Assembly: GCA_944363785.1 (NCBI GenBank)
Contig: CALVVF010000004.1
Location: 459-64,458 of the forward strand
DNA: 64,000 nt
From: an uncultured Bacilli bacterium
Lineage (GTDB): Bacteria; Bacillota_I; Bacilli_A; RF39; UBA660
Reading direction: 5' to 3'
Shown: in pieces, positions 25,360 through 27,856 of the stretch
Layout: each line of letters opens with the position of its first letter
Position numbering within the stretch: position 1 is the stretch's first letter
Position numbers and translations under genes: made by a program
Notes under the pieces: generated by a model
What the model was told of the DNA's origin: nothing
The model's database searches: none
The model's input: the letters and a program-made list of their open reading frames with translations, nothing else

Positions 25360-25426
25360 ATCAATATTCTAATATATTTTATCCACAATTTCAATAGAAA
25401 TGCAAAATTTTCTATTATTTTTACAA

Positions 25427-25442
25427 TGTTCCACGTAAAACA
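25427..25442. promoter_or_regulatory. parS-like site 1 (one mismatch)
   Basis: TGTTCCACGTAAAACA, with ACAA..TTGT flanks. Confidence 0.6.
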
Positions 25443-25533
25443 TTGTAAAAATATCAAATAACAATCTATTTTCGTGTATAAACAAGCCGAATTATATACT
25501 TAAAATTAATTTAACTTAGAGAATACACTTTAA

Positions 25534-25549
25534 TGTTCCACGTGGAACA
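25534..25549. promoter_or_regulatory. parS site 2
   Basis: TGTTCCACGTGGAACA, a perfect palindrome. Confidence 0.85.
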
Positions 25550-25561
25550 TTGTGTATAAAT

Positions 25562-25577
25562 TATTTCCCGGGAAATA
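25562..25577. promoter_or_regulatory. NBS 1 (paired with parS 2)
   Basis: TATTTCCCGGGAAATA, 12 nt after the parS. Confidence 0.75.
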
Positions 25578-25751
25578 ATTCTCATAAAAAATCCAAAACT
25601 AAAATATGGATAAATCTCATTTAAGACTTTACTTATATAAAGTAATAATCAAAAAAACATGAAGTCATATAATCAAATAAAGGAGAATTTTTTTCATAAT
25701 CTCTATTATTTATGCAATAAAAACAACATAATTAAATAAATATTTCAACAA

Positions 25752-25767
25752 TGTTTCACGTGGAACA
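25752..25767. promoter_or_regulatory. parS site 3
   Basis: TGTTTCACGTGGAACA, the reverse complement of the canonical TGTTCCACGTGAAACA. Confidence 0.85.
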
Positions 25768-25778
25768 TTGTGCAAAAT

Positions 25779-25794
25779 TATTTCCCGGGAAATA
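25779..25794. promoter_or_regulatory. NBS 2 (paired with parS 3)
   Basis: TATTTCCCGGGAAATA, 11 nt after the parS. Confidence 0.75.
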
Positions 25795-25942
25795 ATTACT
25801 AGATGCAAATTTGAACAAATAGTTTTCAACAAGAAAACAAAAACTTTTCAAACCAACCACTGAATAAATAAACTATATGCACAAAATAAATAATTCTCTT
25901 TCTTATTAATAAGATTGTAATTCTATTGTTAATTTCTAACTA

Positions 25943-25958
25943 TGTTTCACGTGGAACA
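25943..25958. promoter_or_regulatory. parS site 4
   Basis: TGTTTCACGTGGAACA. Confidence 0.85.
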
Positions 25959-26140
25959 TATAATTCATATATAAAAATATAATAATTAATATACAACTTC
26001 AACACATATTAATACTTACAAAACTAGTAAAAAATCAAAAGAAAAATAGCATTATCTAATTAAAGAAACTATAATCCCTAGCTCAATATATAACTGCAAA
26101 TATCATTTAATTTCTCATTTCAATTACTTATACCCTACAA

Positions 26141-26156
26141 TGTTCCACGTGGAACA
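26141..26156. promoter_or_regulatory. parS site 5
   Basis: TGTTCCACGTGGAACA. Confidence 0.85.
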
Positions 26157-26168
26157 TTGTGTATAAAT

Positions 26169-26184
26169 TATTTCCCGGGAAATA
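26169..26184. promoter_or_regulatory. NBS 3 (paired with parS 5)
   Basis: TATTTCCCGGGAAATA, 12 nt after the parS. Confidence 0.75.
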
Positions 26185-26362
26185 ATTTTCCTATATCAAC
26201 ACTAATTTTCAACAGAAGAAGAACTAATAGAATACAGTAAAGCAAAACTAATAAATTTAAAAAGTTTATTCATAAACTAAGACAAAAGCAAAATAGAAAC
26301 ACACTGATATCTCTTGCCTATATTACAATAATATAATTTAAGATTTCGATCACAACCAGTAA

Positions 26363-26378
26363 TGTTCCACGTGAAACA
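26363..26378. promoter_or_regulatory. parS site 6
   Basis: TGTTCCACGTGAAACA, the canonical sequence. Confidence 0.85.
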
Positions 26379-26598
26379 TTGTGTATAACATACTCTATTT
26401 TCTTAATATAAAATACCCAGACTTTTTATTTACTGAACTAAATAAGTAATAGAAAAAAATATTTTTATCAAATAAAATAATAATAAATATAGACTATCAA
26501 TTACTCTTTCGAAATATACCTTTAAATTATTGTTTGATAATTAAAAACTATAATTTAAATTCCACTTACTGGTTATTTAAGCAGTTATATGATGTTAA

Positions 26599-26614
26599 TG
26601 TTCCACGTGGAACA
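26599..26614. promoter_or_regulatory. parS site 7
   Basis: TGTTCCACGTGGAACA. Confidence 0.85.
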
Positions 26615-26625
26615 TTGTGCAAAAT

Positions 26626-26641
26626 TATTTCCCGGGAAATA
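26626..26641. promoter_or_regulatory. NBS 4 (paired with parS 7)
   Basis: TATTTCCCGGGAAATA, 11 nt after the parS. Confidence 0.75.
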
Positions 26642-26748
26642 ATTTTTTTTTTACATCAACAACCAATTTTCAATAAAGAAAGAAACTAATAGAATATAAT
26701 AAAACACTACTGATAAATAAAAGAAAAACCTATTCGTTCTCTAACCAC

Positions 26749-26828
26749 AAATAAATAAATAAATAAATAAATAAATAAATAAATAAATAAATAAATAAAT
26801 AAATAAATAAATAAATAAATAAATAAAT
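26749..26828. repeat. (AAAT)20 tetranucleotide microsatellite
   Basis: 80 nt of uninterrupted AAAT units, counted directly, between NBS 4 and parS 8. Confidence 0.95.
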
Positions 26829-26886
26829 GTACTGCTGCTTTATTCATTCAATAATATTATCAACCACAATTATTTACAATCGACAA

Positions 26887-26902
26887 TGTTCCACGTGAAA
26901 CA
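26887..26902. promoter_or_regulatory. parS site 8
   Basis: TGTTCCACGTGAAACA. Confidence 0.85.
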
Positions 26903-27129
26903 TTGTGTATAAAATATATACTATTTCCTTGATCCAAATTATTCAGGATATTTACTAAATTAAATAAACAATAGAAAAAGTATTCTTTCTTATCAAATAA
27001 AATAACAAAAATATAGATCATCAGCTATTCTACTAAACTAATAAATACCTTCTTGAATTTAAAATTTTATAGAGCAAGCAAAACTGTATGATATGAAATT
27101 CTTCAAAAATTATTAAATCACTCACACAA

Positions 27130-27145
27130 TGTTCCACGTGGAACA
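27130..27145. promoter_or_regulatory. parS site 9
   Basis: TGTTCCACGTGGAACA. Confidence 0.85.
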
Positions 27146-27156
27146 TTGTGCAAAAT

Positions 27157-27172
27157 TATTTCCCGGGAAATA
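27157..27172. promoter_or_regulatory. NBS 5 (paired with parS 9)
   Basis: TATTTCCCGGGAAATA, 11 nt after the parS. Confidence 0.75.
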
Positions 27173-27394
27173 ATTTTTAATACAAAATATTAACATATAT
27201 ATAAATTAAAATGATTATTAGATATAAAAGTCATATTTTAATAAATTTTAAACATCTCAGAAAAATTAATATAAATAAATTACTACTAAGTATAATAAAA
27301 AAATTTATTCTACATTCTCTACTAAATTAAAAAAGTAATAATTACAACTATAAAAATATTCCAAATAATTATCTTAGTCTAATTATCTGTGCAA

Positions 27395-27410
27395 TGTTCC
27401 ACGTGGAACA
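27395..27410. promoter_or_regulatory. parS site 10
   Basis: TGTTCCACGTGGAACA. Confidence 0.85.
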
Positions 27411-27694
27411 TTGTGTATAATTATCTATTTAAAATTAATTATACACAATTATTCTTCTGTAAGTATTACTTTATATTAACTAAAAAAATCTAGCATCATA
27501 ACTAATCATATCAAAACTCAGCAAACATCAATTGTCATTTTCTAGATTACCTATAAATATCCACCAACTAAAAAGGCAATACTCAGTATATATAAACTCC
27601 AAAATAAATTCTACTCATCTCTTCATTAATTACTATATAAAACATTTTAAATTATGCACATACTAAAAATATTTCCATACATCTTAATCCATAA

Positions 27695-27710
27695 TGTTCC
27701 ACGTGAAACA
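27695..27710. promoter_or_regulatory. parS site 11
   Basis: TGTTCCACGTGAAACA. Confidence 0.85.
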
Positions 27711-27856
27711 TTGTGTATATTTCTTCCGTTTATAGCGCCAAACATAACACAATTACCATCTATATAAATAAAAATCATAAATTTAATAAGTAACTTCATA
27801 GAACATATGTTTGTATTAATGAGTACATATTTCAATTAACAACATAAATCAAAACA

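Follow-up and report, generated by a model that had tools for sequence, protein, structure and literature searches.

The DNA analysed here, a stretch of 64,000 nucleotides (in the following, the window) from contig CALVVF010000004.1 of an uncultured Bacilli bacterium, contains the replication origin oriC together with genes on both of its sides. Judging from its sequence, the gene-free spacer between gyrA and tadA probably represents a dedicated chromosomal centromere which serves two ParB-family proteins at once: eleven parS sites are interleaved with five binding sites of the Noc type (Noc-binding sites, NBS), and a ParB/Spo0J-type protein and a Noc-type paralogue, predicted to bind parS and NBS, respectively, are encoded in the same window.

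parS and Noc-binding sites in the gyrA-tadA spacer

When up to two mismatches to TGTTCCACGTGGAACA were allowed, a search of the window returned eleven 16-mers between positions 25427 and 27710, as compared to 0.01 expected by chance, and all of them match TGTTNCACGTGAAACA with no or one mismatch. Five are the perfect palindrome TGTTCCACGTGGAACA, another five correspond to TGTTCCACGTGAAACA or its reverse complement, and the remaining one is TGTTCCACGTAAAACA. Neighbouring parS start 107–300 bp apart, and ten of the eleven share AATGTT..AACATT flanks, the exception being the site at 25943. A first-pass annotation of the window, which had reported eleven parS, was exact to the base in their coordinates, variants, spacings and flanks. 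With three mismatches allowed against TGTTNCACGTGAAACA, the 64 kb contain no further parS apart from a weak match at 58174; the absence of parS from the parB gene, also claimed previously, was borne out by this search.

Overlooked in the first-pass annotation was a second 16-bp palindrome, TATTTCCCGGGAAATA, of which the array contains five perfect copies. Each of them is paired with a preceding parS at a distance of 27–28 bp, from start to start as well as from centre to centre, and with its flanks it forms the extended palindrome AATTATTTCCCGGGAAATAATT. Over all 16 bp it is identical to the NBS that was co-crystallised with Noc of Bacillus subtilis (bioRxiv 10.1101/2022.02.28.481274). The window contains eight perfect NBS (0.3 expected), five in the array and three that are solitary and lie in short gaps between genes. 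The array and its sites are as follows.

25423–27714: composite parS/NBS array in the spacer between gyrA and tadA with its adjoining signal recognition particle (SRP) RNA gene; 11 parS and 5 NBS, about 22% G+C, gene-free
25427–25442: parS 1, TGTTCCACGTAAAACA, degenerate, one mismatch against TGTTNCACGTGAAACA; starts 62 bp upstream of the 5' end of the SRP RNA (25365)
25534–25549: parS 2, perfect palindrome TGTTCCACGTGGAACA; partner NBS at 25562
25562–25577: NBS a, TATTTCCCGGGAAATA, extended to AATTATTTCCCGGGAAATAATT
25752–25767: parS 3, TGTTTCACGTGGAACA; partner NBS at 25779
25779–25794: NBS b, carrying the only base substitution of the array in a second strain (C to T in the core)
25943–25958: parS 4, TGTTTCACGTGGAACA, without NBS, flanks atypical; this unit is missing in the second strain (198-bp parS-to-parS deletion)
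26141–26156: parS 5, perfect palindrome; partner NBS at 26169
26169–26184: NBS c
26363–26378: parS 6, TGTTCCACGTGAAACA, without NBS
26599–26614: parS 7, perfect palindrome; partner NBS at 26626
26626–26641: NBS d
26887–26902: parS 8, TGTTCCACGTGAAACA, without NBS
27130–27145: parS 9, perfect palindrome; partner NBS at 27157
27157–27172: NBS e
27395–27410: parS 10, perfect palindrome, without NBS; a 12-nt inverted repeat adjoins it (27411–27450)
27695–27710: parS 11, TGTTCCACGTGAAACA, the site closest to gyrA
18307–18322: solitary NBS, intergenic between pth and a methyltransferase gene
39261–39276: solitary NBS, intergenic between jag and mnmE
40794–40809: solitary NBS, intergenic between mnmE and mnmG

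The units of the array show a higher-order period of about 460–530 bp, in which a parS-plus-NBS unit alternates with a parS-only unit. With distances of 107–300 bp and only 60–90% likeness outside the sites, they do not form the head-to-tail iteration of near-identical units, each with one site, that is typical of plasmids. Where other units hold the NBS, parS 10 is abutted by a perfect 12-nt inverted repeat, TGTGTATAATTA..TAATTATACACA, at 27411–27450.

The limits of the spacer and the position of oriC are defined by the following features.

25277–25365, minus strand: SRP RNA gene with a promoter-like site at 25394–25366; limit on the tadA side, transcribed away from the array
27855–27892, minus strand: terminator-like hairpin of gyrA; limit on the gyrA side
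35280–36986: bipartite oriC, consisting of DnaA-box clusters flanking dnaA (35280–35342 and 36800–36986) and the GC-skew switch

The longest open reading frame (ORF) lying wholly inside the spacer comprises 62 codons, in agreement with the earlier claim that there is no credible ORF. Neither an Rfam family nor a tRNA was found inside it. Promoter-like sites are not enriched (22 found, 29.6 expected), and the spacer appears to be untranscribed. The layout of oriC is Bacillus-like and bipartite, with the GC-skew switch at about 36–37 kb, and the array lies 7.6–11.6 kb from the DnaA-box clusters and this switch.

The conserved parS flank TTGTGTATAA, which reads TTATACACA on the opposite strand, fits the DnaA-box consensus TTATNCACA; DnaA-box-like TTATACACA is located beside six parS, at 25551, 26158, 26380, 26904, 27412 (minus strand) and 27439 (plus strand). 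The spacer of the window contains eight matches to TTATNCACA (0.3 expected) and the spacers of other species 38 (5.3 expected), the latter excess being uneven between species and inflated by duplication of units, for which reasons these motifs were not counted as part of the mechanism.

The two ParB-family proteins and ParA

The array is not the pure ParB array which the first-pass annotation had implied: five of the eleven units are composites of parS and NBS, and a Noc-type paralogue with specificity residues of the NBS type is encoded 16 kb away. Across oriC, the gene order is rnpA, yidC, jag, mnmE, mnmG, rsmG, noc-type, soj, parB, the last three being

44002–45099, plus strand: Noc-type ParB paralogue, 365 amino acids; specificity residues Q-K-S-R, motifs GERR and ENLQR; predicted NBS binder
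45197–46006, plus strand: ParA/Soj ATPase
45963–46886, plus strand: ParB/Spo0J; specificity residues R-M-S-G, N-terminal ParA-binding motif ALGRGLEELF; predicted parS binder

Positions 173, 179, 184 and 201 (Caulobacter numbering) decide between binding of parS and of NBS, ParB being characterised by R-x-x-G and Noc by Q-K-K-R, the presence of Lys at either 179 or 184 being enough (Jalal et al. 2020, PMC7383237). The corresponding region of the Noc-type paralogue, GKSQAAIANKMRLLS...ERHAR, reads Q-K-S-R and that of ParB/Spo0J, GKSRSHITNMLGLLS...MGHAR, reads R-M-S-G; on the basis of these residues, the window is predicted to encode one binder per type of site. The best matches of the Noc-type paralogue among solved structures are to Noc (216 and 190 bits), as compared to 185 bits for Spo0J. 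Both paralogues keep the GERR and ENLQR motifs for binding of cytidine triphosphate (CTP), in which the Noc exchanges R89A and N121S abolish CTP binding. The ParA-binding motif is present in the ParB-type protein only.

The Noc-type paralogue begins 15 residues before the NRFQPR box, and its residue 5 aligns to residue 4 of the 228-residue Geobacillus chain 7NG0, which probably is the NocNΔ26ΔCTD construct, without the membrane-targeting amphipathic helix α1 and without α2. The N-terminal amphipathic membrane-targeting helix of Noc is thus absent from the protein; such a helix was predicted in every Noc homologue examined by Adams et al. (2015), and NocNΔ10 was non-functional. The DNA-binding domain is followed by a linker of about 100 residues, rich in Pro, Ser and acidic residues, and a conserved C-terminal domain of about 45 residues. 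NCBIfam TIGR04285 (nucleoid_noc) is the top-scoring family with 287.6 bits, which is below its cut-off of 315, and the C-terminal third is unmatched. Since the protein lacks the helix and does not reach this score, we refer to it as Noc-type and not as Noc.

In 28 distinct relatives from metagenomes, 15–22 residues precede the box, the specificity residues are Q-K-x-R (Q-T-T-R in one case), and the length is 300–700 residues. The best 150 representatives of clusters at 50% identity all align from their first residues, with a median of 17 residues before the box and a median length of 491 residues (range, 221–834). Gln173, Lys179 and Arg or Lys201 occur together in 110 of 112 strict-motif representatives (Q-K-S-K was seen once), and the other two have Q-T-T-R. 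Going by these alignments, the form with the short N-terminus is a lineage trait rather than an accident of annotation. The linker is hypervariable and disordered and spans 50–450 residues or more across relatives; it comprises hundreds of residues in the products of the Noc-type genes of the loci L184 (3495–5597), L163 and L155 (L-numbers are locus labels of relatives), and tandem peptide repeats such as ETYETPEVPMYEPYTEPVQ were seen in the linker of a Noc-type protein of 700 residues.

Conservation, turnover and neighbourhood of the array

A scan of 185,579 species-representative genomes for CACGTGRAACA followed, after a gap of 5–35 bp, by TATTTCCCGGGAAATA (about 0.004 chance matches expected) retrieved parS-NBS pairs in at least 120 loci. 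Location played no part in the criterion. Among the loci listed, the sites adjoin gyrA in 105 and tadA in 94, as judged by tblastn with the proteins of the window, at GyrA identities of about 55–94%, and parS and NBS are clustered in every one of them. Almost all of the listed loci are either from metagenome-assembled genomes (MAGs) that carry the labels uncultured Bacilli, Tenericutes, Mycoplasma sp. or Erysipelotrichaceae, or from scaffolds named 'Clostridium sp. CAG'. Strictly alternating tandem arrays are found in L018 (8 pairs, 64-bp period), L080 (9 pairs), L081 (12–13 pairs), L049, L115, L015 and L060 (11 pairs), and the arrays of some relatives are perfectly regular, with periods of 64–84 bp. 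Six further relatives were picked by GyrA identity tier (81–86%) and contig size only; all six have mixed sites in the gyrA-tadA spacer (2–8 parS and 1–5 NBS), this motif-independent sample consisting of near relatives, as the top 120 GyrA homologues reach down only to about 80% identity. The array is syntenic in a large clade, and not peculiar to one genome.

Among relatives with a name, the closest is 'Candidatus (Allo)scybalousia intestinigallinarum' (GyrA, 94% identity; Bacilli incertae sedis). An assignment of 'Candidatus Scybalousia' as a genus of the Bacteroidales was discarded as due to a homonymous taxid; the relevant genus is now Ca. Alloscybalousia, Bacilli incertae sedis. The clade may correspond to the GTDB orders RF39 and RFN20. 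Several public MAGs labelled as Muribaculaceae or Bacteroides helcogenes (L011, L012, L019, L036, L044, L053, L063, L070) carry the Bacilli-type order gyrB, gyrA, array, tadA, dnaX, and their GyrA proteins are 55–77% identical to that of the window. Wrong binning or wrong labelling of these contigs is the probable reason.

Both types of site are concentrated in the spacer. Inside 81 spacers (65.9 kb) there are 338 parS and 179 NBS, and in the flanks of the same loci (555 kb) there are 41 and 69, respectively, so that NBS are about 22-fold denser in the spacers. The noc-soj-parB regions of relatives (470 kb) contain no parS and nine NBS. Many relatives share an NBS that is separated by about 1.7–1.8 kb from that end of the array which faces tadA. 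The consensus sequences of the clade are aATGTT[T/C]CACGTG[A/G]AACATt for parS and, conserved over 24 bp, AAAtTATTTCCCGGGAAATAaTTT for NBS. A motif-free 10-mer screen across the 81 spacers did not reveal a third conserved motif; only pieces of parS, of NBS and of the SRP RNA gene recur, the recurrence of the two sites being partly built in by the search pattern, which demanded one parS-NBS pair per locus.

Comparison of the window with the related species L079 (GyrA, 94% identity) showed 95.5% identity for the SRP RNA gene with its promoter and 92% for the 16-mers, as opposed to 55% for the DNA between the sites, which is near the noise level for aligned AT-rich DNA. By this alignment, the 16-mers are the only part of the array conserved between species, as would be the case if selection keeps them intact. 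In a second strain (L001, gyrA DNA 100% identical), the array contains ten parS as compared to eleven in the window, and the two arrays are 99.96% identical. The differences comprise a precise 198-bp parS-to-parS deletion, six (AAAT)n units and one homopolymer base; from these differences, we conclude that the array turns over by unequal recombination between sites. The (AAAT)n microsatellite, at 26743–26830, consists of about 22 units in the window and is shorter by the six units in L001. The sole base substitution (window 25779, L001 14342; one in 2351 aligned bases) changes the core of an NBS from CCCGGG to CCTGGG, which could be a sequencing error or a true loss of the site.

The distances between adjacent parS and NBS were analysed with each distance counted once per locus (n = 212 pairs), over a range of 21–51 bp that the search sampled evenly. 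The centre-to-centre distances show modes at 26–27, 36 and 48 bp and are rare near 30 bp; a further trough lies at 41 bp, a distance at which there is not a single pair. The Rayleigh Z value is 15.9 for a period of 10.5 bp and 19.7 for 11.5 bp. The pattern is suggestive of a steric or helical-face constraint between two bound dimers; a specific face-of-helix geometry was set aside, as the best period (11–11.5 bp) is not cleanly 10.5 bp.

On the tadA side of the array, the gene order is SRP RNA (small type, RF00169), tadA, dnaX. A perfect DnaA box, TTATCCACA, is located at 25379–25387 between the -35 (25394–25389) and -10 (25371–25366) elements of the promoter-like site of the SRP RNA gene and is kept in L079; the transcription unit of SRP RNA, tadA and dnaX might thus be under the control of DnaA. 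The tadA ORF (24815–25348) comprises 177 codons as read here and in public assemblies, and overlaps the SRP RNA gene. Since the family match begins at residue 30 and homologues have 142–155 residues, the real start of tadA is probably near 25261.

Between dnaN and recF, an unusual place for a homologue of the competence regulator, there is a ComK-family ORF (PF06338; 150 residues; 33537–33989, minus strand), which more than 23 related species have in the same place. Sporulation-associated homologues that have been kept in this gut lineage comprise a YabG peptidase, a SpoVT-like protein and BofA (window 632–1471 and 12344–12892; L001 18001–18186), and a LysM-G5-M23 peptidase encoded at 55562–57112 suggests a wall of peptidoglycan. 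A T-box leader (RF00230, 96.8 bits; 12115–12317, minus strand) precedes a dUTPase-like ORF (11587–12075), which overlaps the start of metS (10038–11621).

A putative centromere for two ParB-family proteins

If the spacer is a centromere shared by two ParB-family proteins, the ParB/Spo0J-type protein (45963–46886) would nucleate on the eleven parS and the Noc-type paralogue (44002–45099) on the five interleaved NBS. As both proteins keep the CTP-binding motifs, both would be expected to close into CTP sliding clamps and to spread across the 2.5-kb spacer and into the adjoining DNA, resulting in a mixed nucleoprotein complex which would be moved by ParA/Soj through the N-terminal motif of ParB. 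As envisaged in the first-pass annotation, ParB and SMC may be loaded at the array and may reach oriC by sliding. Bound dimers of one paralogue may act as roadblocks for the clamps of the other, as has been proposed for RicO with respect to ParB in Staphylococcus aureus. Since the membrane-targeting helix is absent from the Noc-type partner, its role at the centromere probably is not classical membrane tethering. Most likely, it would shape or confine the ParB complex or provide a second layer of origin marking, be it as a roadblock, as a partner clamp, or in the control of division or replication; Noc of S. aureus restrains initiation.

Tentatively, and with considerable reservation, this idea may be carried further: the Noc-type paralogue might be a centromere component rather than a membrane-tethering occlusion factor, with two CTP clamps loaded from interleaved sites in fixed register building one heterotypic partition complex, and the present state might be an intermediate of the neofunctionalisation of ParB to Noc, or a reversion. 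In the intermediate case, the paralogue would already have switched its DNA specificity while still being centromeric, before gain of the membrane helix and dispersal of the sites.

Several observations weigh against a shared centromere. Single NBS also occur in intergenic origin-proximal DNA (three in the window, 69 in the 555 kb of flanks), so that the Noc-type protein is not restricted to the centromere. Its subfamily never has Lys at position 184, and NBS affinity is thus deduced from Lys179 alone. Alternation within one species can come from duplication of a composite unit alone, and the spacing, which fits a period of 11–11.5 bp slightly better than one of 10.5 bp, was determined from loci that are phylogenetically non-independent. 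The motif scan required a parS-NBS pair and hence gives no fraction of the clade, the six-locus sample being the only one free of this bias. The organisms of the clade are known only from MAGs. Finally, six of the eleven parS in the window are without NBS.

The last of these points, together with the exclusively intergenic, dispersed location of the solitary NBS near the origin and the observed gain and loss of units, would also be accounted for by co-location without coupling, which is the main rival explanation. The Noc-type protein would then be a dispersed nucleoid-associated factor as in Bacillus, the NBS would have accumulated in the one large gene-free spacer near the origin and have been amplified along with parS by tandem duplication, and the array would functionally be a ParB centromere with some NBS in addition. 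This explanation is weakened by the persistence of both site types in the arrays of more than 100 species, with quite different unit lengths and no similarity between spacers, by adjacent parS and NBS being spaced in quantised rather than random distances, and by the 22-fold density of NBS in the spacers; moreover, the Noc-type protein is devoid of the helix needed for canonical nucleoid occlusion. We regard it as unlikely. A pure ParB centromere, as envisaged in the first-pass annotation, in which the palindrome centred on CCCGGG would have nothing to do with Noc and be a target, for example, of another regulator or a restriction-modification system, would be in keeping with parS outnumbering NBS and occurring in every unit, and with the presence of ParA and parS-type ParB genes nearby. 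It is very improbable, given that the palindrome equals the crystallised NBS over all 16 bp, extends to a 24-bp consensus conserved in the clade, and is matched by a paralogue with NBS-type residues encoded in the canonical position of noc.

A selfish or neutral repeat with parS-like palindromes by chance, such as a satellite, a decaying mobile element or a sequence resembling miniature inverted-repeat transposable elements, might be suspected from the polymorphic copy number, the higher-order repeat of about 460–530 bp and the microsatellite in the array. The fixed position between gyrA and tadA, even at GyrA identities of about 55%, the absence of copies elsewhere in the 64 kb and in the 470 kb of noc-operon regions, the conservation between species of the protein-binding 16-mers only, and the absence of a transposase or of terminal repeats effectively refute this explanation. 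The comparison of the tadA-gyrA interval across relatives, suggested as a check in the first-pass annotation, likewise excludes the decaying mobile element, as the 16-mers are conserved at the same place.

The centromere proposed here for two proteins resembles the Spo0J/ParB-parS system of Firmicutes in its identical 16-bp parS consensus, in the origin-proximal location of the sites, and in the presence, beside rsmG, of genes for ParA/Soj and for a ParB of the parS type that possesses the CTP motifs and a ParA-binding N-terminus. The earlier assignment of the sites as consensus parS in a dedicated, gene-free, origin-proximal array is supported. Eleven sites in 2.3 kb are far denser than in documented cases from Firmicutes, which agrees with the layout having been called unusual for this group; S. 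aureus, for example, has five parS over about 400 kb, whereas all detectable sites of the window lie in gene-free 2.3 kb. In B. subtilis, parS are located mostly inside genes, one of them within spo0J, whereas the parB genes of the window and of its relatives contain no parS, and the parS of the array are interleaved with NBS.

With the Noc-NBS systems of B. subtilis and S. aureus, the window shares the identical 16-bp NBS and a paralogue with Gln173, Lys179, Arg201 and the CTP motifs, encoded directly upstream of soj-parB. It differs from them in that this protein has neither α1 nor α2, contains a linker of 50–450 residues or more in its subfamily and scores below the NCBIfam cut-off for Noc, and in that the sites are concentrated in tandem with parS instead of being only scattered. 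Typical of the Noc-NBS systems are NBS distributed around the whole chromosome but depleted near the terminus; in the origin-proximal DNA of the window, five of eight belong to the array.

Plasmid tandem centromeres, for example sopC of F, consist of iterated sites for ParB-family proteins. As in these, many sites for partition proteins form a dedicated non-coding array, but the present array is chromosomal, involves two paralogues, and has irregular spacings of 107–300 bp and diverged DNA between the sites. In Corynebacterium glutamicum (Actinobacteria), ten parS, nine of them intergenic, are contained in 35 kb, and the cluster is located 73 kb from oriC. The array likewise combines many consensus parS in one mostly intergenic cluster on one side of oriC; the cluster of C. 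glutamicum, however, is about 15 times less dense, has genes between the sites and contains no second type of site. RicO-ricS of S. aureus and RacA-ram of B. subtilis also represent a second DNA-binding protein with its own origin-clustered sites alongside parS, and the authors of the RicO study propose that RicO limits ParB sliding or SMC loading. RicO and RacA are not related to ParB, do not spread, and tether DNA to the membrane by an amphipathic helix, and their sites are not interleaved with parS in a register of 26–48 bp.

While parS, NBS, ParB and Noc are all known, and dense intergenic clusters of parS are known from Actinobacteria, no description was found in the literature searched of a gene-free array with about five parS per kb in a Firmicute, of parS interleaved with NBS, of such an arrangement being kept at one syntenic position in at least 120 species, or of a large Noc-type subfamily without membrane helix and with a long disordered linker.

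ParB and Noc are the textbook example of how a DNA-binding protein, after duplication, gained a new site and a new job, and model organisms keep the two systems apart in space. The array likely is the sole centromere of a widespread group of uncultured gut bacteria. It would provide a natural system, tractable in vitro, for asking whether two CTP clamps can share one loading zone and whether they block or help each other, for which the alternating 64–84 bp units of some relatives are ready substrates. It also opens the questions of what role Noc had before, or has without, membrane binding, and of how the switch in DNA specificity relates in evolution to the switch in function.

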